A stretch of 24,000 nt of DNA, from positions 1 through 24,000 of the forward strand of contig DUPM01000025.1 in assembly GCA_012838315.1 (NCBI GenBank), in the 5' to 3' direction. The position numbers and the translations under genes are program-made. Shown here piece after piece: positions 7,394 to 23,012 of the stretch (position 1 is the first letter of the stretch; the number at the start of each line of letters is the position of its first letter). Origin of the DNA: Clostridiaceae bacterium. Its GTDB lineage: Bacteria > Bacillota > Clostridia > Saccharofermentanales > Saccharofermentanaceae. The notes beneath the pieces are model-generated. The model was given only the letters and a program-made list of their open reading frames with translations. It did no database searches and was not told the origin of the DNA.

Positions 7394-8371
7394 CTACAAC
7401 ATCTGCTTCTTTTTTAAGATATATACAGCAGATATGATACTGACAATACCGGCAATCAGAACCATGACAAATGGTACCGGATTCGTTGAAAAATCCGGAT
7501 TCCACGGCATAGGTACGTTCTGTCCAAAAAAACTGCTGATAACCGTAGGAACAGATAATACGATAGTCGCCGCTGCCATAATTTTCATAATTAAGTTCAT
7601 ATTATTATTAATGATGGATGCATAAGCGTCCATCGTGCCATTGACAATTGACGCATAAATCTCAGCCATTTCACGGGCTTGCTTATACTCGATGATAACG
7701 TCTTCAAGGAGGCTCTCATCATCTTCATACTGTTTCACGACTCGCCCACGCATTAACTTCTCAAGCACCGCCTCGTTGGACTTCAAAGATGTTGAGAAGT
7801 AAACAAGCGATTTGCCGAGTTCTAATAACTTATACAAATCTTTGTTACTGATCGACTTAGCCAGTGCTCGCTCTGACGTCTCAAGCGTCTTGTCCATGTA
7901 ACGCAAAAGCTTCAAATAGTCTTTCGCAACAGAGAGAAGGATTTGAATCGCAAATCGCGTACGAAAATTAACGATAAAATCGCGAACTCTGTTCTCAATG
8001 AATGGATCTAATACCGACGCCTCACGCAAAGATACTGTCAGCAGATGCTTTTTGGTGATGATGATGCCAAGTGGCGATGTCTCATAATGTACCGAATTCT
8101 CTTCTTGGCGAGTACACGGGATATCGATAATTAAGAGAACATCCCCGGTATCCTCATCAACGTCAATTCTAGGACGCTCTTCTTCGTCTAAAGGATAGCG
8201 CAAAAATTCTTGAGGAACGGATGTCATTCGCTCAACTAAGGCAATCTCATCTTCAGTCGGCGCAAACATATTAATCCAACAATCGTCACGGACTTCATCA
8301 ATGCGTTCTATTCGATGAGCCGCCTTCTCTTTCAAACTTGACAGATGCTTGGTGACATAAATGTCAATCAT
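7394..8371 (-). CDS. corA: CorA-family (2-TM GxN) divalent-cation channel with GQN in place of GMN.
   Basis: The C-terminus has two TM helices flanking FFGQNVPMPW, compared with YGMNFEYMPEL in Thermotoga CorA, and ends in KKKQ. The start is reassigned to the ATG at 8371 (MIDIYVTKHL...), preceded by GGAGAGGAGG. The track ORF start at 8443 lies over the leader hairpin. Confidence 0.85.
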   Translation of the reverse strand: MIDIYVTKHLSSLKEKAAHRIERIDEVRDDCWINMFAPTEDEIALVERMTSVPQEFLRYPLDEEERPRIDVDEDTGDVLLIIDIPCTRQEENSVHYETSPLGIIITKKHLLTVSLREASVLDPFIENRVRDFIVNFRTRFAIQILLSVAKDYLKLLRYMDKTLETSERALAKSISNKDLYKLLELGKSLVYFSTSLKSNEAVLEKLMRGRVVKQYEDDESLLEDVIIEYKQAREMAEIYASIVNGTMDAYASIINNNMNLIMKIMAAATIVLSVPTVISSFFGQNVPMPWNPDFSTNPVPFVMVLIAGIVSIISAVYILKKKQML

Positions 8372-8408
8372 ACTTGCACCTCCTCTCCAGAAATCGAAAT
8401 TTTCACTC

Positions 8409-8444
8409 AAAAAAACGACGCAAGCGCTGATAATTTCTTGCATC
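8409..8444 (-). terminator. Intrinsic-terminator-like hairpin plus U7 in the dut-corA spacer (dut terminator or corA leader attenuator).
   Basis: Minus strand reads GAUGCAAG-aaauuaucagcg-CUUGCGUC-G-UUUUUUU. The stem is 8 bp including one G.U pair. The T-tract is at 8415..8409, only about 37 nt upstream of the corA ATG. Confidence 0.55.
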
Positions 8445-8459
8445 GGGATATCTTAGTGT

Positions 8460-8468
8460 ATTTTACCA
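8460..8468 (-). promoter_or_regulatory. Candidate extended -10 element (TGgTAAAAT) upstream of the corA leader hairpin.
   Basis: Minus strand reads tgGTAAAAT in the intergenic spacer 35-43 nt after the dut stop. The -35 region is poor (TGGAAT). Confidence 0.3.
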
Positions 8469-8502
8469 CCAAAAGGAAGACCATTCCAGCGTTTTGAGAA
8501 TT

Positions 8503-9003
8503 TTACATATCCTTAATGCCGGTCGATCCAAACCCACCGCTTCGGTCACTCCCGATGCCATCAAGAGATTCGAATTGAATAAACTCTGCCTTTTCTACCT
8601 TTGCAATAACCATTTGAGCAATTCTGTCTCCGACTCGAATATGATATGTGCCCTTCGGTGAGCCTTTTGCAGATAAATCATACACGACGTCATTGTCTGT
8701 AACATCAGACGCAGAGGTCGCATTACTAAGAATTACTTTAATCTCATCTCTGTAGCCGGGATCGATCGTACCCGGGCTGTTCGGAATTCTAAGCATTGTG
8801 TTGTATGACAGCCCGCTTCTAGGACGGATTTGGATCTCATATCCATCGGGAATCGCCGCCTTCAAGCCGGTAGGGACCAATACGGTTTCGCCCGGACGAA
8901 TAGTGACATCTTCAGCCGAATAAATATCCATTCCAACATCGTTATCATGTGCATAACGAGGTATTTTGGCATTGGGTCGAATCATAACCATAGGAATATT
9001 CAT
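8503..9003 (-). CDS. dut: dUTP diphosphatase (trimeric dUTPase).
   Basis: AHDNDVGMDIYS, IRPRSGLS, PGTIDPGYRDEI, GDRIAQMVI and a C-terminal RSGGFGSTG. RBS is GGAGG. Confidence 0.95.
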   Translation of the reverse strand: MNIPMVMIRPNAKIPRYAHDNDVGMDIYSAEDVTIRPGETVLVPTGLKAAIPDGYEIQIRPRSGLSYNTMLRIPNSPGTIDPGYRDEIKVILSNATSASDVTDNDVVYDLSAKGSPKGTYHIRVGDRIAQMVIAKVEKAEFIQFESLDGIGSDRSGGFGSTGIKDM

Positions 9004-9045
9004 AATTATCCTCCAATAGCGCTAATGTGTGAAAATAATAACAAG

Positions 9046-10641
9046 TTACACATCCGCGCTCATATCTGACAGAATTCTAAAAATTTGATGTTCACTTTCA
9101 TCAATGATACGAATCAATCGTAACACATTTAAACCTCGTTGCGAAAAATTGCGAACCAAAACCGAACGATCGTATTTTGATTTTCCGTAGAGTTCAGACG
9201 TGCAACTCATTGGTCGCAATATAAGACGAGCCATCTCTTCTTCCTGCCTCTGATTCTTCGTTACGTGAAAGGTGTTAGTCCCATTCGCGCAAGCCTTACA
9301 ACTTGGTGCATTTTTCCCAACAGGACAAAAGTGCGACAACATCCACTCAATCGGTCCATAGACTTGGATAAGAACCGGAATACCGGAGTGATCCAGATGA
9401 TAATTTAGAAGCTTTTCCAGCGAAGAATTATCAACTTCATGTGAAAACTCAATGGCATCCGGCTGTTTGTCTAAGATAACAGATAGCGAAGCAATATTTG
9501 TAATATTTGCATGGTGAGAAATAATATACGAAGTCCCATCGGTTGTCGGTGCATCCGTAATGTATCCCAAAAATTGATCACCATGACTTCTTGTTTTTGT
9601 ATTCATTTCGATTCGCATATCTCTGTCTTGCAAAAAACGAGATGACGAATTAAGTCTGATTGCGAAAGAATAGCCGGGATGATTCTTGAAAAAGTCATCT
9701 ATGCGTTTGTAAGTGTCGCCGCTCAGAATGTCAAATGCTGAAAATACATAAAACATTGTAGACGGTTCGATATCAGTAATACCATCGTTTATGGAGTGTA
9801 AATTTATGTATTCAACCGCAATTTTATAAGAGCACATATGACCATTTGTAACATCGGAACCGGACAACAAATTTTTCGGTGCGCACAGAAAATCAGATGT
9901 GTTGACACGAGTATTAGACTTATGACGTTTAAACGATGCAACATAAAGCGTCTCAAAAGATTGAAGCATAGTTCGACGGATATGATTTAATAAAGAAACC
10001 GGAGCTATAGGTAAATCACCTGAGAAATCCACTTCTGTGACACGAAAAGAAGTCCCGCCGGTCTTACTCATCTGCGAACGAATTCGATCTATGGATAAAG
10101 CACCGCCCGAATATGCAAGGTCAACAGAAAAATCTTTGCGAAGAGCGATTGTGTGGTCCGATTCAGATCGGACGGACACGATGATTTCAGAATCTCCCTG
10201 ATGGTATATCAATTGAAAAGATACAGGCAAACAAGAGGCTAAATCCATTGACACGGCTCTTTTTCGCGCAACAAGATAGAGCGAATATGATGGTTTTACA
10301 AGACGCAGCTGGTCCGGGTGTGCGCCATATAGACCCCACTTTGCGAATTGATCCGCAGGGGTCGGATGGTCCAATTTGCCCACTGGAAACGTGATGATGT
10401 CATTATTACCGTCACGAACCGCAACCGTATCGCCCACGTTGATTTGAAGCGATACTAACTCAGACGAGACAAACACCACTCCCTTATGGGGATGAACATC
10501 CACAATGCGACCGAAATAGACGCCGTAGTGGCTGACAAAATCACCACTATGTAAAAGACTTCCACGGTGGTCCTCATAATAATGCGACGAAAAATCGCCA
10601 CCTCGATTGAAGCTTAAGAGTAATTCGGTTTCATAATCCAT
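9046..10641 (-). CDS. C-terminal portion of a long-form U32 family protein (the post-barrel FNRGG/beta-barrel region, a DUF3656-like middle, and a Cys-rich C-terminal module), encoded as a separate ORF.
   Basis: It begins ...LLLSFNRGGDFSSHYY..SHYGVYFGRIVDV...GDTVAVRD, matching the segment that follows the catalytic barrel in long U32 proteins as I recall them (FNRGGFT.GY ... H.G..iG.V). The C-terminus, EWMLSHFCPVG...CKAC...LRLIRIIDESE, resembles the C-terminal module of those proteins. The start is uncertain: the ATG at 10641 has a weak SD, or a GTG at 10650 could be used. The track start at 10785 overlaps metY by 56 nt. Confidence 0.6.
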   Translation of the reverse strand: MDYETELLLSFNRGGDFSSHYYEDHRGSLLHSGDFVSHYGVYFGRIVDVHPHKGVVFVSSELVSLQINVGDTVAVRDGNNDIITFPVGKLDHPTPADQFAKWGLYGAHPDQLRLVKPSYSLYLVARKRAVSMDLASCLPVSFQLIYHQGDSEIIVSVRSESDHTIALRKDFSVDLAYSGGALSIDRIRSQMSKTGGTSFRVTEVDFSGDLPIAPVSLLNHIRRTMLQSFETLYVASFKRHKSNTRVNTSDFLCAPKNLLSGSDVTNGHMCSYKIAVEYINLHSINDGITDIEPSTMFYVFSAFDILSGDTYKRIDDFFKNHPGYSFAIRLNSSSRFLQDRDMRIEMNTKTRSHGDQFLGYITDAPTTDGTSYIISHHANITNIASLSVILDKQPDAIEFSHEVDNSSLEKLLNYHLDHSGIPVLIQVYGPIEWMLSHFCPVGKNAPSCKACANGTNTFHVTKNQRQEEEMARLILRPMSCTSELYGKSKYDRSVLVRNFSQRGLNVLRLIRIIDESEHQIFRILSDMSADV

Positions 10642-10729
10642 TGAAGTCACTATTCCACTGTCCTCGTCTTGGCGCTTCGATAAGACGGATGCCTTAAGAA
10701 AGCACAAGTAATGCTGTGCCTTTATCGTT

Positions 10730-12010
10730 TTAAATCTGAGACAACGCTTGATCAATATCTTGAATAATGTCTTTGACGCTTTCAATACCCACTGACAAAC
10801 GAATCATGTCTGAGCTGACACCGGCAATTGCCAAACCCTCTTCGGACAACTGACGATGCGTGTGACTTGCCGGATGCAAGACACAAGTTCTCGCATCGCA
10901 GACATGCGTCGCGATTGATGCAAGTGAGAGTGAATCCATAAATGTGACCGCAGCATCTCTGCCACCCTTGACACCAAAACTTAAAATTCCGGGAACACCA
11001 TACTTCAAATATTTGCGTGACAATGCGTGCTGAGAATCGCCTTCAAGCCCGGGATACTTGACCCAAGACACTTTAGGGTGATTATTGAGGTAGTTTGCAA
11101 CTTCAAGCGCATTCTGAGCATGCCGAGGCACACGAAGATGAAGCGTTTCAAGTCCAATGTTCAATAGAAACGCATTCATTGGTGCAGGAGATGATCCAAG
11201 ATCTCTCATTAATTGCGCTGTCGCCTTGGTCAGAAATGCAACTTTGCCGAAATCCTTGGTGTAAATCACGCCATGATATGAGTCATCCGGCTGTGTCAAT
11301 CCGCGAAAACGCTCCGGATGGGATGCCCAATCAAAACGACCGCTATCTACGATGCATCCACCGACACTCGTCGCGTGACCATCCATATACTTGGTCGTTG
11401 AGTGAATGACAATATCTGCACCCCACTCAATCGGCTTACACAATATGGGTGTTGGAAAAGTATTGTCGACAAAAAGAGGCAGTCCACAAGCATGTGCCGC
11501 ATTGGCAAAGGACTCGATATCTAAAACATTAAGCGCAGGATTTGCAACAGTCTCTCCGTATATCAATTTGGTATTTGGTCGGACTGCAGCTTTGATTGTC
11601 TCTTCATCTGAATCCGGCGGAATAAATGTCACTGATACACCCATTTTCTTGAGTGTTACAGAAAAGAGATTGAACGTTCCACCGTATAAAGCCGAGGCAC
11701 TTACGAAATGGTCTCCGGAGTCACAGATATTCATGATGGCGATAAATATGGCCGCCTGACCGGATGAAGTCAGCATGCCTCCTGATCCACCCTCGAGTGC
11801 TGCAATCTTGGCCGCTACAGCATCGCAAGTCGGATTGGCCAAACGAGTATAAAAATACCCGGGCTCTTGCAGAGCGAAAAGACGTCCCATCTGCTCTGTT
11901 GAATCATATTTGAAAGTTGTACTTTGGGTAATTGGCAAAACGCGCGGCTCACCATTGCCCGGATGATAACCAGCATGCAAACAATTGGTTTCAATACTGT
12001 AATCACTCAT
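10730..12010 (-). CDS. metY: O-acetylhomoserine sulfhydrylase / aminocarboxypropyltransferase (Cys/Met-metabolism PLP-dependent enzyme family).
   Basis: TNCLHAGY, YTRLANPT, the PLP-lysine motif HSTTKYMDGHATSVGG, and a C-terminal IRLSVGIE. The start is reassigned to the ATG at 12010 (MSDYS...), preceded by GAGGTG and a 7-nt spacer. Confidence 0.9.
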   Translation of the reverse strand: MSDYSIETNCLHAGYHPGNGEPRVLPITQSTTFKYDSTEQMGRLFALQEPGYFYTRLANPTCDAVAAKIAALEGGSGGMLTSSGQAAIFIAIMNICDSGDHFVSASALYGGTFNLFSVTLKKMGVSVTFIPPDSDEETIKAAVRPNTKLIYGETVANPALNVLDIESFANAAHACGLPLFVDNTFPTPILCKPIEWGADIVIHSTTKYMDGHATSVGGCIVDSGRFDWASHPERFRGLTQPDDSYHGVIYTKDFGKVAFLTKATAQLMRDLGSSPAPMNAFLLNIGLETLHLRVPRHAQNALEVANYLNNHPKVSWVKYPGLEGDSQHALSRKYLKYGVPGILSFGVKGGRDAAVTFMDSLSLASIATHVCDARTCVLHPASHTHRQLSEEGLAIAGVSSDMIRLSVGIESVKDIIQDIDQALSQI

Positions 12011-12060
12011 ATATATCACCTCGCTGACAAGTATTTATGGAATTTATGAATTATATCATA

Positions 12061-12891
12061 TTACGCGTTCACAGACGTCTCCGCAAGAATCTGATTGAGT
12101 AATCTTCGATATATTGATACAACGTTTCGAACATATTCCGGGCTTCGCATTCGGCCTTCAATCTTGAGTGAGTCAACGCCCATATGAACTAATTCGCCCA
12201 AGAAATGATAAAGACTTCGATCCTTAATCGAAAATACTGCGCCTTCAGATATTTTCCCAGATTGCCCCAAGATAGCATAATTCTCGCGACAAGGTTGCGC
12301 ACAATCACCGCGATTCCCGCTTCTCATTCCACCTTTGTTCATCGCGCTGAATAAACAAATACCCGAACAACTGACGCAATGTGCACCATGGACAAACACT
12401 TCCGTACCGATACTATATTCTTGAGATAACTTAATGGATGCCTTTATATCTTCTCGAGAGAACTCACGCGGAAGTACCCAGCGAGAAATACCCAATTGCT
12501 GAGCCAAATGAAACGAATCCTTGTTGTGGACGTTCATCTGTGTGCTGGCATGGATTTGAAGGTCTGGAAAAGACTCACTAACAAGCGCGCATAACCCTTT
12601 ATCTTGAATAATGACAGCATCAATGCCTTCGCGATATGCCTTGAGAACCGTATCCATCGCCTCATCAAATTCGTCGTCATGTATCAGCGTGTTAATCGCG
12701 AGATACGCTTTCACACCACGAGCATGACAATAATCCGAGACCATTCCTATTTGGTCTATCGAAAAATTATCTGCTTTGGCACGTGCGCTAAACTGCGACA
12801 CGCCAAAGTACACTGCATCAGCACCGGCAATAAGTGCTGACTGAAGCGCAAGCTCAGAACCGGCAGGTGCAAGAAGTTCAGTTGTCATCAT
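12061..12891 (-). CDS. U32 family protein, catalytic (beta/alpha) barrel half (peptidase U32 / RlhA-TrhP-UbiU-type Fe-S hydroxylase family).
   Basis: ELLAPAGS...GADAVYFG; the U32 signature EVFVHGAHCVSCSGICLFS....RSGNRGDCAQPCR (nt 12286..12402); VDSLKIEGRMRSPEYV. The start ATGATG at 12891/12888 overlaps the zapA-like stop (12878..12880). Confidence 0.85.
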   Translation of the reverse strand: MMTTELLAPAGSELALQSALIAGADAVYFGVSQFSARAKADNFSIDQIGMVSDYCHARGVKAYLAINTLIHDDEFDEAMDTVLKAYREGIDAVIIQDKGLCALVSESFPDLQIHASTQMNVHNKDSFHLAQQLGISRWVLPREFSREDIKASIKLSQEYSIGTEVFVHGAHCVSCSGICLFSAMNKGGMRSGNRGDCAQPCRENYAILGQSGKISEGAVFSIKDRSLYHFLGELVHMGVDSLKIEGRMRSPEYVRNVVSIYRRLLNQILAETSVNA

Positions 12892-13522
12892 TGATCTCAT
12901 CTTCTGAATCATTGTCTTCGGAGAAGCGAAAAACAAGCGACTCTAAAGGTAACGGCTCAATCTTGCTTAATGCTTCTGCGTCTTCTCTGGACTTGGAATT
13001 GTGTTCAATATGGTCCTTAAGACGAAGAATTTCTTTTTTCAGTTCCCAATTAATTTCGCGAATCTGAGCATAATCTGCTTTTAGGTTATCGATTTCACTT
13101 TGGAATCGACTCTGCAAGTCAGTCATCGTAAGCCGTTTATGTTCAGACTGATTCCATTCATCAATCGCGTTGATTAATGCCAAGACAAGTACGTTCGACA
13201 TGTGAAATCCCGGATGTGAATCGCTGATACTTTCTATCATTCGATTGGCCTGGTCGGCAATCATTTGAACATATGATTCTTGGTCGGGATCAGATACAGA
13301 TATTTTATGCTGCATTCCGGCAATATAAACGTCAATTTTGAAGGAATTCGGCTTATCTGAAGAAGGTTTAGAGGCTCGCTTATTCTTATACCGTTGTCGA
13401 TAGTTCACAATCTCTTTCGTTGAATCCTGCTCCGGTGTCTCTTTGGCCTTCTGAGGTTTGGATTTCTTCGCGGACTCGGAGTATTGCTTAAACAAACTGC
13501 CGGTATTACTGTGATATTCCAT
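12878..13522 (-). CDS. zapA: ZapA-like cell-division protein, extended form (basic N-terminal region, ZapA core, coiled coil, acidic tail).
   Basis: Core: KIDVYIAGMQHKISVSDPDQESYVQMIADQANRMIESI....SNVLVLALINAIDEW, which fits the ZapA pattern. RBS is GGAGGAGG. At 214 aa it is about twice the length of a typical ZapA. Confidence 0.65.
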   Translation of the reverse strand: MEYHSNTGSLFKQYSESAKKSKPQKAKETPEQDSTKEIVNYRQRYKNKRASKPSSDKPNSFKIDVYIAGMQHKISVSDPDQESYVQMIADQANRMIESISDSHPGFHMSNVLVLALINAIDEWNQSEHKRLTMTDLQSRFQSEIDNLKADYAQIREINWELKKEILRLKDHIEHNSKSREDAEALSKIEPLPLESLVFRFSEDNDSEDEINDDN

Positions 13523-13543
13523 GAGTCCTCCTCCACACTTTAC

Positions 13544-14401
13544 TTATGTATCTCTACTCATTGTAACATTCTCTTCGAAGAGAGAAGCATATAAACGGAG
13601 AAAATCTCGAGGTGCCATCGCTTCCGCTCGAATCGTATCTCGAATCCCCGAGTTAAGAAATGCTTTAGTGATTTGCTCGCGGGAAAAGGAAAAACTCGAG
13701 GCCAAAAGATTCTTGGAGATCGTTTTGCGACGCATGGCAAAGCAATGTTGAACAAATGCAACCAAGTTTTTCGATAGGAACGTTGACGTTTCATTTTTAT
13801 CAAATGCGATAACCAAAGATCGTGTTTGAGGCTGTGGGTCAAAACTTCGTTGGTCTACAACGAAGAGTTTCGACTTTTTGCCATAAATGGATGTCAGCAC
13901 GGAAAGCGGACCGTATGACTTTGTGTCAGGCACCGCAAATATTCGCGCTGAAGCATCTTCTTCTATCATAAAAACCATTTTCCTAGACTCCGAATAATCT
14001 TGAAGACATTTGATTATTAGCGGAGTCATAATATAATAAGGAAGATTTGAAACGATAATATCAACGGATTGATGCGCTGAAAGCCACTCGTCTCGTTTGA
14101 GCAATAAAAAATCTGACGCAACAAGCGAAAAGTTCGAAAAAACGGAAAATCGGTTTCGCAGTAAGGGATACAAATTCTCATCAATTTCAGATGCAAAAAC
14201 GCTTGCTCCCGTATGAATTAATAGTTCCGTCAATGCGCCTATACCGGGACCGATTTCCAAAACAACATCTTGAGCACGAATGCCGGCAGAATCAACAATT
14301 CTGCCGGCAACCGAATCGTTGCACAAAAAGTTTTGACCGAGAGATTTTCGGGCTTTCAAACCATATTGATCACAAAGCTCAGCAATCTCTTTTCGATTCA
14401 T
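13544..14401 (-). CDS. rsmA: 16S rRNA (adenine1518/1519-N6)-dimethyltransferase RsmA/KsgA.
   Basis: LGQNFL, the SAM motif VLEIGPGIGALTELL, and VSNLPYYI. The ATG overlaps the purL stop (ATGA at 14401). Confidence 0.95.
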   Translation of the reverse strand: MNRKEIAELCDQYGLKARKSLGQNFLCNDSVAGRIVDSAGIRAQDVVLEIGPGIGALTELLIHTGASVFASEIDENLYPLLRNRFSVFSNFSLVASDFLLLKRDEWLSAHQSVDIIVSNLPYYIMTPLIIKCLQDYSESRKMVFMIEEDASARIFAVPDTKSYGPLSVLTSIYGKKSKLFVVDQRSFDPQPQTRSLVIAFDKNETSTFLSKNLVAFVQHCFAMRRKTISKNLLASSFSFSREQITKAFLNSGIRDTIRAEAMAPRDFLRLYASLFEENVTMSRDT

Positions 14402-21344: not shown

Positions 21345-23012
21345 TCAAAACTGCATCGATTGTTCTTCGATTTTTTCAATATAGTCAAACAACGACATAC
21401 TGTCTTCCAAGTCAATCGAAATATCTTTCGGATCAATCATTGAAATAGAGCATTCGAAGTCAATAATATTATTTTCACTGTAGCCGTCATCTATGCGAAG
21501 TTTACCATCTTTAAACGTCGTCTCAGATTTGCCGTCGGTCAAAGCACCCGTCACTTCTATTACAAAGCCGTTCTCGCCTCCAAAAGACAAAACAGCTTCA
21601 AAGTTATCGCCCATTTTATCCTTAGTATCCCACTCCATTTCAAAAGTCGCGCTTAAATACTCTTCTTTTCGTTCTCCATCGATGAATACTTCAATTTCTC
21701 TTTTAAAAACACCTCGTTCAAAAGACTGCTCCCAATCCATGCCTAGCTCAACTTCTTCGCCTTCTGCGCTCAGCGTTAGGATGGCGGAGATGTCGTCGGT
21801 TGGGTTATTCTTGCCACCGAGCAGCATTTCAAATTCGATTGCAAGATCTCCACTTTCACCTACCATGGACAACTCAAATTCATCCACGGAAATTATTCGA
21901 ACAAAATCATTCCTGTCAACATAGTAGGTGATGATGATGTCTCCCTTTATCTTGATTCCACTGAACACATCAAAAGCACTGTCAAAGGCCTCTTGACTGG
22001 TCTCGAGTTCGTATCCCTGATACATGTAACCCATACTGTCGAAAAACCACTGCTTATATGCACCCAACGCATCCTGCAAATAATCATTTGCGTCGTCTTC
22101 TGAAATCACGTAAGACATCGCATCCAGTTTATATCTTTTGCCATTTATCTTTTCAGTAACCGATTTTCCATGAGAAAATTCTGCAAAATCCTCTAAGAAC
22201 TTTGCCTCTCGATAATACGCCGCAACCTCATCCAAATTCTTTCCCCCAGCCTCGGATTTTCCAAAAAACATATCCAAAGCTTCGTCGATATAATCTGACG
22301 GCAATGACGGCTCCGTCCCAAGTTCCTCAATATCATCAGCAAATGTATCAGGATCTATGGTAAGAAACGTCGCATCATTAAATAATTCCGGAAATGAAAT
22401 AGCAATTAGCTCTCGCGAAATATACATCAAATTGTCATCATAGACCTGAGTACCATTATCAAAAAGCATTTCGAAAAGCGCCTTCTCCGCCTCGGCATCA
22501 TATAAGACAGATATATCCGCACCAACACCTTCCGATTCAACAGAAAACTCGTACTCAACCGCTTGATCCGCATATTTACTCATGTCAATTAATTGCATAT
22601 CGCTTTTGTCAGAAAAAGTTCTGCCAAGCGACACCTGTAAATATCTCTCCGGATTAACTAACTTCAGAAACTTATAGCGCAAAATAATCCCAAGGCCGAC
22701 GATTAATGCAACGAAAATGACAATTGCTATCACAGCAATGAAACCTTTATTCTCAGATTTATTCTTTCTCGAAGGATCTGCCACGGCGTGATTCGAAATC
22801 TTTTCAGCATCGCCTTCAGTCGTCGAATTATCAACAGAAACTGGACTAATCGGTACGAAAACCGTATTTTCATCCTGTTCCAAAGTCTCATTATTCATAA
22901 TAACTTCATCGGAATTATCTTGATCCGTGTCCAAAGCAATCAACTTCTCGCCGCACGATTCGCAATAAGTCGCATCCGTAGAATTTTCAAAATTACATTT
23001 CGAACAAATCAT
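21345..23012 (-). CDS. Zinc-ribbon membrane protein of unknown function (cytoplasmic CxxC..CxxC ribbon, one TM helix, and a roughly 440-aa acidic extracytoplasmic domain).
   Basis: MICSKCNFENSTDATYCESCGEKL. TM helix: GFIAVIAIVIFVALIVGLGIILRY. I do not recognise any catalytic motif in the remainder. RBS is GGGGGG plus a 5-nt spacer before the ATG at 23012. Confidence 0.75.
   Translation of the reverse strand: MICSKCNFENSTDATYCESCGEKLIALDTDQDNSDEVIMNNETLEQDENTVFVPISPVSVDNSTTEGDAEKISNHAVADPSRKNKSENKGFIAVIAIVIFVALIVGLGIILRYKFLKLVNPERYLQVSLGRTFSDKSDMQLIDMSKYADQAVEYEFSVESEGVGADISVLYDAEAEKALFEMLFDNGTQVYDDNLMYISRELIAISFPELFNDATFLTIDPDTFADDIEELGTEPSLPSDYIDEALDMFFGKSEAGGKNLDEVAAYYREAKFLEDFAEFSHGKSVTEKINGKRYKLDAMSYVISEDDANDYLQDALGAYKQWFFDSMGYMYQGYELETSQEAFDSAFDVFSGIKIKGDIIITYYVDRNDFVRIISVDEFELSMVGESGDLAIEFEMLLGGKNNPTDDISAILTLSAEGEEVELGMDWEQSFERGVFKREIEVFIDGERKEEYLSATFEMEWDTKDKMGDNFEAVLSFGGENGFVIEVTGALTDGKSETTFKDGKLRIDDGYSENNIIDFECSISMIDPKDISIDLEDSMSLFDYIEKIEEQSMQF

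Follow-up and report, generated by a model that had tools for sequence, protein, structure and literature searches.

A putative two-subunit RlhA-type enzyme encoded on either side of metY in uncultured Clostridia

Background

Enzymes of the RlhA type are recently recognised O2-independent, prephenate-dependent hydroxylases whose structure and in vitro activity are unresolved (PMC10990095); they are common in Clostridia (PMC5727448). RlhA (YdcP) of E. coli is the 5-hydroxycytidine synthase acting on C2501 of the 23S rRNA. Its essential residues include E161, C169 and C176 as well as C580 and C611 of the C-terminal region, and the DUF3656 domain co-occurs with the U32 domain only in the RlhA subfamily (PMC5727448). 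Among other U32 proteins, UbiU and UbiV copurify as a heterodimer, each binding one [4Fe-4S] cluster by means of cysteines that are conserved (CX6CX15CX3/4C; PMC6747719), while trhP1 and trhP2 of B. subtilis are found in tandem in one operon, both being required for tRNA hydroxylation (PMC6599085). The breakage of a gene by inserted DNA has been described for mitochondrial cox2 of the wasp Campsomeris, where the insert carries other open reading frames (ORFs) and the two products are both expressed and thought to reassemble (PMC5374615). Here we describe a locus on a stretch of 24,000 nucleotides (positions 1–24,000, hereafter the window, to which all coordinates of the locus refer) from the metagenome assembly of a Clostridiaceae bacterium. 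In it an RlhA-type U32 gene is present as two ORFs with a complete sulfhydrylase gene, metY, between them. Sequence comparison makes it likely that this locus is the outcome of an old insertional fission and that it specifies a two-subunit RlhA-type enzyme.

The two halves of one RlhA-type protein

The upstream ORF, referred to as the N half (12061..12888, on the minus strand like the other genes of the locus), probably starts at ATG 12888 and then specifies 275 amino acids (AA), an alternative ATG being present at 12891. It contains a complete Peptidase_U32 barrel (PF01136, E-value=5.5e-60, profile positions 3–202 of 233). The downstream ORF, the C half (9046..10650), most likely begins with the GTG at 10650, since the two sister lineages have their ATG at the aligned position and the NCBI call HHT76664.1 uses the same start. 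On that start the C half has 534 AA and its spacer to metY (10651..10729) is 79 nucleotides (nt) long; the original prediction had the same ORF, read as 531 AA with a spacer of 88 nt. The two U32 ORFs are 1,410 nt apart, and metY (10730..12010, 426 AA) is the sole gene inside this gap.

That the ORFs represent consecutive parts of one protein, as had been proposed, is borne out by their collinear and non-overlapping alignment to P0003, a single 785-AA U32 plus DUF3656 protein. Residues 1–266 of the N half align to residues 1–266 of P0003 (48% identity), and residues 6–489 of the C half to residues 284–750 (29% identity). In a multiple alignment the halves abut with neither overlap nor loss. 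A linker of approximately 25 residues separates the barrel from the FNRGG motif (here 10597..10611) in the fused proteins, and the stretch from the last barrel helix to FNRGG has the fused length plus one residue in the window. The extra residue at the junction is the new initiator methionine, and the linker itself has lost no residue.

The relatives of this protein are fused. All of the 120 best relatives of P0003 are single proteins of 776–797 AA; those that carry a name are assigned to Saccharofermentans sp., Oscillospiraceae or Ruminococcaceae bacterium YAD3003. When 1.84 billion representatives were searched exhaustively with the C half (HMMER), almost all proteins recovered had 750–900 AA, and their residue ~285 is the counterpart of C-half residue ~5. 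P0002 was the one stand-alone hit of full length; it is 56% identical and originates from a sister lineage with the same split. No stand-alone DUF3656 family was found among these representatives, the shorter hits not having been individually checked except for P0136; this candidate for an independent DUF3656 protein turned out to be part of a fused gene truncated by the end of its contig.

The C half matches DUF3656 (PF12392, E-value=3.5e-10, 41 bits, cutoff 22.1) at 9949..10230, that is, residues 138–231 of the 531-AA reading. The U32 and DUF3656 domains are here divided between two ORFs rather than carried on one polypeptide. Because the two domains co-occur only in the RlhA subfamily (PMC5727448), the domain content places the protein in that subfamily. 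Of the "RlhA/TrhP type" suggested earlier, the RlhA part agrees with the sequence (U32, DUF3656 and C-terminal cysteines), and TrhP is less apt, DUF3656 being specific to RlhA. Identity with TrhP (YegQ) was rejected: the equivalog model NF011996 scores 181.5 bits with the N half, well below its cutoff of 534, and covers the barrel only, and DUF3656 is present instead of the Peptidase_U32_C architecture.

The N half carries HGAHCVSCSGIC...RSGNRGDCAQPCR and terminates 22 AA past KIEGRMRSPEYV. E163 and H167 lie just upstream of its four-cysteine motif (12289..12378; C171-x6-C178-x17-C196-x3-C200), and E163, H167, C171 and C178 align with E161, H165, C169 and C176 of E. coli RlhA. None of the four cysteines varies among 31 fused relatives or in the sister lineage. 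By analogy with UbiU and UbiV they are presumed to be [4Fe-4S] ligands, the middle spacing (x17) being two residues longer than that published (PMC6747719).

In the C half a linker helix bearing FNRGG is followed by a beta-barrel and DUF3656 and then, after a variable linker, by a C-terminal alpha/beta module. This module contains four further cysteines (9202..9327; CX8CX2CX28C), numbered C717, C726, C729 and C758 on the concatenated halves, which are invariant in the 31 fused relatives and retained in the window and in the sister lineage L001. C729 aligns with C580 of E. coli RlhA. The counterpart of C611 is ambiguous in the alignment, the CxxC of E. coli being CxC in the fused relatives and CxS here. 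With C611 set aside, every residue of known functional importance is kept across the two halves. The main argument for a two-subunit enzyme is that the essential RlhA residues are now divided between two polypeptides, so that the halves should still need each other.

A weak hhalign match (probability 6%) places SHHANI/SHEVD/QVYGPI…C of the C-terminal module in register with ASTQMN/PREFS/EVFVHGA.C of the N-terminal U32 barrel; a Pfam scan of the module gave no match. The module might be a degenerate second U32-like domain, comparable to the RlhA2 motifs of PMC5727448.

Conservation and age of the split

In four relatives (L007, L008, L009 and L010) a fused gene lies between zapA and dut and metY is absent from its inside. 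A fifth contig, L013, begins within the fused gene, its 3' part being followed by dut, again with no metY inside. The fused relatives share with the split locus the gene string htpG-purL-rsmA-zapA-[U32]-dut-(corA)-hydrolase-tsaD-smpB-vanZ. The synteny comparison proposed with the original prediction gave the outcome expected there. The fused hits and syntenic fused genes together rule out that the best homologues of the C half are stand-alone proteins with no relation to U32 C-terminal regions, and that two genes with metY between them are the usual ancestral layout.

The split with metY was found in three lineages. That of the window is represented by independent re-assemblies (L012, L096 and NCBI HHT76664/HHT76666), a second (L001–L006) by ENA, JGI and Logan assemblies with contigs of up to 380 kb, and a third by L095, whose N half is 83.6% identical to that of L001 and 74.5% identical to that of the window. 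Across the three the N half is 75–84% identical. Of the two possibilities raised earlier, a two-subunit arrangement or a very recent insertion, the first stands. The split is not recent, since three diverged lineages share the layout and synonymous sites are saturated (see below), and it is older than the separation of these three species-level lineages from one another.

All of these data come from metagenome assemblies, and the arrangement might in principle reflect misassembly, a possibility raised with the original prediction, or a recently disrupted pseudogene whose halves are still open. Misassembly was rejected, as both junctions recur in the independent ENA, JGI, Logan and NCBI assemblies and the layout is common to the three lineages. 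Decay is opposed by the saturated synonymous sites, the low non-synonymous divergence and the open reading frames described in the next section. An explanation by artefact or decay is hardly credible, and an old split of a functional gene is preferred.

Distant from these lineages, a zapA-linked U32 protein of 282 AA (P0046; L011:5001-5985, ENA ERZ27268037 k119_14453) ends …QLLHLF* where FNRGG is expected. The 136 nt after its stop encode a U32-type beta-barrel-like segment on the opposite strand, which is cut off by the end of the contig. Either an inversion that broke in the same linker or a chimeric contig end would account for this.

Selection on the halves

Divergence was calculated between the window and L001, using the uncorrected proportions of non-synonymous (pN) and synonymous (pS) differences and, for the corresponding rate ratio (dN/dS), the NG86 method. 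Synonymous sites are saturated (pS 0.71–0.76; NG86 dS 2.1 or undefined), and for this reason the pN/pS ratios are overestimates. They amount to 0.21 for the N half (pN 0.15), 0.36 for the C half (pN 0.28) and 0.10 for metY (pN 0.08; 87% identical). The NG86 dN/dS is 0.08 for the N half, dS of the C half being undefined. The neighbouring housekeeping genes show a divergence pattern like that of the N half, and no frameshifts or stops were found over 809 codons. Both halves are under purifying selection. Recent pseudogenisation was rejected on the grounds of saturated pS, low pN and undisrupted reading frames.

The C half evolves faster than the N half. In the split pair (window and L001) the N part is 74.9% and the C part 55.6% identical; in fused pairs with an N-part identity of 72–78% the C parts are 45.7–55.4% identical. 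Because fused pairs show a like divergence of their C parts, the constraint on the C half is not relaxed and its rate is a property of the family.

These figures bear on a functional uncoupling of the halves, in which the barrel would work alone or with another partner, the DUF3656 half would have an independent or new role, and the layout would persist through operon inertia. Stand-alone U32 barrels of ~250–300 AA do occur naturally (5D88; UbiV, PMC6747719; TrhP2, PMC6599085), and of the positions conserved to 95% or more in the fused set, which is sampled and phylogenetically narrow, the C half has lost 50–55%. Yet its divergence is within the normal range of fused proteins, it keeps the four invariant cysteines, one of which corresponds to the essential C580, and both halves are retained together in 3/3 lineages. 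The lack of a stand-alone DUF3656 family among the representatives searched, with the shorter hits taken as stated above, points the same way. Uncoupling is in our view unlikely, and continued cooperation of the two products is the better reading of the data.

metY and the origin of the split

The product of metY matches TIGR01326 with 584.1 bits (cutoff 495.1; profile positions 2–417 of 418) and PF01053 virtually end to end (E-value=1.6e-123; positions 1–380 of 381), as expected from the intact 426-AA sulfhydrylase reported between the halves. Its translation contains the segment STTKY, which we take to hold the pyridoxal phosphate-binding lysine. The strong ribosome-binding site (GAGGTGA, 7 nt before the ATG) and the upstream gap of 50 nt were confirmed in the sequence, together with the ORFs, motifs and coordinates given in the original prediction. 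An Rfam scan of 8400–13700 at E≤1 returned no match, so that metY has no S-adenosylmethionine riboswitch or T-box, again as first described.

The reported absence of mobile-element functions also held. No transposase or integrase family matched the ORFs in or beside the locus, and no direct or inverted repeats flanking metY, or target-site duplications, were found above chance level. The locus does not resemble a skin-like element, insertion sequence or prophage, metY being alone between the halves with no recombinase or repeats. The halves do not keep the same relative frame across lineages, the N-half stop and the C-half start being offset by 1413 nt in the window and by 1408 nt in L001, and this disfavours a read-through or excision-type mechanism. 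The GC content of metY, which it had been suggested to compare with the flanks, was not distinctive (~0.46–0.47 versus 0.40–0.46).

In L007 a metY gene (L007:12630-13910) lies 4 kb downstream of the fused U32 gene on the other strand. The window metY as a relocated copy of this neighbour was rejected, the two being 57.6% identical, and each is 66–70% identical to MetY proteins of mixed Clostridia and Bacteroidales. In a neighbour-joining tree the MetY proteins of the window and L001 pair with that of L015, a Clostridiales metagenome-assembled genome from yak rumen, and L007 MetY groups with those of Oscillospiraceae. Such identities are at odds with how the species are related, and they point to metY having been exchanged horizontally among anaerobes of gut and rumen. 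Among GTDB species representatives, the 80 closest metY loci were examined and a U32 gene adjoins none of them. The window metY may have been acquired horizontally or may derive from another place in the same genome.

The following course of events is proposed. The ancestral gene would have specified a single polypeptide in which a U32 Fe-S barrel was joined to a beta-barrel, DUF3656 and a C-terminal module rich in cysteine. A fragment of ~1.4 kb, carrying metY with its own expression signals, would have cut the linker of ~25 residues between barrel and FNRGG, providing the barrel with a stop codon and the remainder with a ribosome-binding site and a start codon. The split goes back to an ancestor shared by at least three species-level lineages of uncultured Clostridia, all of which have retained it. 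Both products would be made from one gene string, zapA-U32N-metY-U32C-dut, and would most likely reassemble non-covalently into the architecture of the fused enzyme, presumed to be a prephenate-dependent, O2-independent RNA hydroxylase of the 23S rRNA cytidine type. From the sequences we infer co-transcription and the insertion mechanism, as well as the association of the halves, their activity and their substrate.

A single event is favoured because the linker length is preserved exactly and no lineage has adjacent halves without metY. The reverse order, in which fission came first (for example by a nonsense mutation and a new start) and metY moved into the gap later, gains some credit from L010 (5811-5813; ENA ERZ28573574 scaffold_2054), a case of one in-frame TAA arising in this very linker (…RRMIDAY*EGGLNADLL…FNRGG), and from the gain of another single gene, corA, by the same gene string. 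The TAA of L010 is isolated, however, and although GAAGGAGG is present 3' of it, there is no in-frame start ahead of FNRGG. Relatives of at least 90% identity read tyrosine at this position, and L010 was rejected as an intermediate with a split but no metY; the TAA is taken to be an isolated nonsense mutation or a sequencing error. Adjacent halves without metY were not found in any lineage among 5.8 billion protein clusters, and the preservation of linker length to within one residue fits a single clean event. Fission before the arrival of metY is quite improbable, and we favour fission by the insertion itself.

Several points nevertheless weigh against an insertional origin of a working two-subunit enzyme, beyond the conserved positions lost by the C half. 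No intermediate exists in the databases, identity falling from 75% to ~50% for the N half and from 56% to 30% for the C half; the insertion may accordingly have caused the split, or metY may have entered a pre-existing one. The organisms of the split clade are known solely from metagenome assemblies, and a second, intact rlhA elsewhere in the genome is possible. Finally, RlhA activity has had no in vitro biochemical demonstration for any member of the family (PMC10990095).

Expression signals

The zapA stop codon and the N-half start codon overlap (ATGATGACAACTGA), which suggests translational coupling of the two genes. The N-half stop TAA and the non-coding sequence directly 3' of it form a 24-nt block, TAATATGATATAATTCATAAATTC (12040..12063), that is identical in the window and L001 despite the saturated synonymous sites. 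It contains an extended -10-like element, TGATATAAT, at 12058–12050, and TGnTATAAT is kept in 3/3 split lineages. The remaining spacers of the locus show no conservation beyond Shine-Dalgarno sequences. The block is a putative extended -10 promoter for metY and possibly also for the C half; a scan with consensus promoters missed it because it has no -35 match. The regions upstream of the four nearest metY loci (L015, L016, L022 and L024) were inspected and bear no resemblance to it.

Of the spacer that separates metY from the C half only GACGAGG is kept (GGTGGGG in L095), ~11 nt before the start codon, and no convincing terminator was found there. The two hairpins reported in this spacer are present as sequence; the predicted folding of the spacer does not surpass that of shuffled sequence (z -0.97 for the window and -1.24 for a relative), and the spacer is not conserved between lineages, and a role of the hairpins as terminator or regulator was rejected. 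Co-transcription of metY and the C half is plausible.

With a conserved promoter-like block behind the stop of the N half, the two halves could be expressed differently, and to that extent the block favours the functional uncoupling discussed above. It also leaves some room for the fission having been put to regulatory use, the metY-borne element driving metY and the C subunit, or for the halves having separate partners or functions, but we consider this doubtful. If regulatory use were true, the assembly of an RNA hydroxylase would be tied to sulfur and methionine metabolism; on either version nature would have shown here that the barrel of RlhA and its RNA-binding/Cys module are separable units. 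A reassembled enzyme from one gene string is the explanation retained here.

Structure prediction

The concatenated halves were modelled as one chain with AlphaFold2 using a 43-row alignment, giving a mean predicted local distance difference test score (pLDDT) of 79.3 and a predicted template modelling score of 0.82. The N half is modelled as an alternating beta/alpha barrel that finishes with a long terminal helix (250–268). After the junction there follow a helix (281–289, ETELLLSF), a beta-barrel, DUF3656, a disordered linker (521–548) and the C-terminal alpha/beta module; this comprises the C-terminal ~260 AA (9046–9830), again with alternating beta/alpha structure and carrying the four invariant cysteines. 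At the junction, pLDDT is below 50 at residues 274–278 only. The top PDB fold match of the model is Mk0906 (5D88), a stand-alone U32 barrel. PDB sequence searches with both halves found nothing, and there is no long-form structure in the PDB. In the model the cut sits in a flexible inter-domain loop and leaves a barrel predicted to fold autonomously.

Neighbouring genes

The genes of the minus strand are, in order, htpG, purL (1261 AA), rsmA, zapA, the U32 N half, metY, the U32 C half, dut, corA, an alpha/beta hydrolase gene, tsaD, smpB and vanZ. The neighbours rsmA and tsaD had been taken to fit a role of the U32 protein in RNA modification, for which they are only suggestive. The position of zapA (12878..13522; PF05164, E-value=1.5e-9) is constant in all relatives. 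Its product, with 214 AA, is approximately twice the length of the Pfam ZapA domain and possesses a Lys/Ser/Pro-rich N-terminal extension of ~60 AA and an acidic C-terminal tail. The dUTPase gene dut (8503..9003; PF00692, NF001862) is the conserved downstream neighbour of the U32 gene.

The split clade and L013 have a corA gene (7394–8443 in the window) between dut and the hydrolase gene, a place from which it is absent in L007 and L010. Its gain in the same gene string indicates that single-gene insertions into this cluster are not exceptional.

Elsewhere in the window, an ORF of 555 AA (21345–23012) has as its sole family match an N-terminal zinc ribbon (PF13240, E-value=2e-4), the remainder being without a Pfam match.

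Comparison with known systems

The two-piece version, kept by selection, marks a permissive cut site in an enzyme of the RlhA family. The locus suggests that the Fe-S barrel and the part with DUF3656 and the Cys module can be expressed separately and reassembled, which could aid biochemistry and structural work. It would also represent a clean bacterial case of insertional fission by a housekeeping gene and not by a mobile element. For annotation, caution is advised where a stand-alone "DUF3656 domain-containing protein" and a short "U32 family peptidase" are found around metY, as they may be the halves of one enzyme.

The closest proteins are the fused forms of Saccharofermentans and Oscillospiraceae-like organisms (P0003; L007, L010, L013), which share the orthologous position and full-length collinearity. 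They differ in being single ORFs, and the metY of L007, 4 kb away on the other strand, belongs to a different branch. With E. coli RlhA (PMC5727448) the protein shares the equally spaced E, H and C residues of the U32 domain, DUF3656 and the Cys-rich C-terminal region, counterparts of E161, C169, C176 and C580 being present. The E. coli enzyme is one polypeptide of 653 AA, whereas here there are 275 and 534 AA with metY between the genes, and the middle and C-terminal regions are much longer here, as in the clostridial forms of 776–797 AA.

UbiU-UbiV and TrhP1/TrhP2 resemble the proposed enzyme in being U32 hydroxylation systems of two separately encoded polypeptides and, since they work as two proteins, indicate that multi-subunit U32 enzymes are viable. 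Their subunits, however, are paralogous U32 barrels derived from duplication, whereas here one multidomain protein has been cut, the second subunit has no Pfam U32 match, and an unrelated gene lies between the subunit genes.

A text search of the literature revealed no paper linking U32, RlhA or DUF3656 with gene fission. The closest described evolutionary parallel that was found is the fission of Campsomeris cox2, in which a gene was likewise split into two complementary ORFs by inserted DNA. That gene is organellar and a putative nuclease of the insert was possibly causal, whereas here a biosynthetic housekeeping gene was inserted, and the insert contains neither a nuclease nor a recombinase. 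Set beside these systems, a two-subunit split RlhA is a variant within a known family and not a new kind of system.

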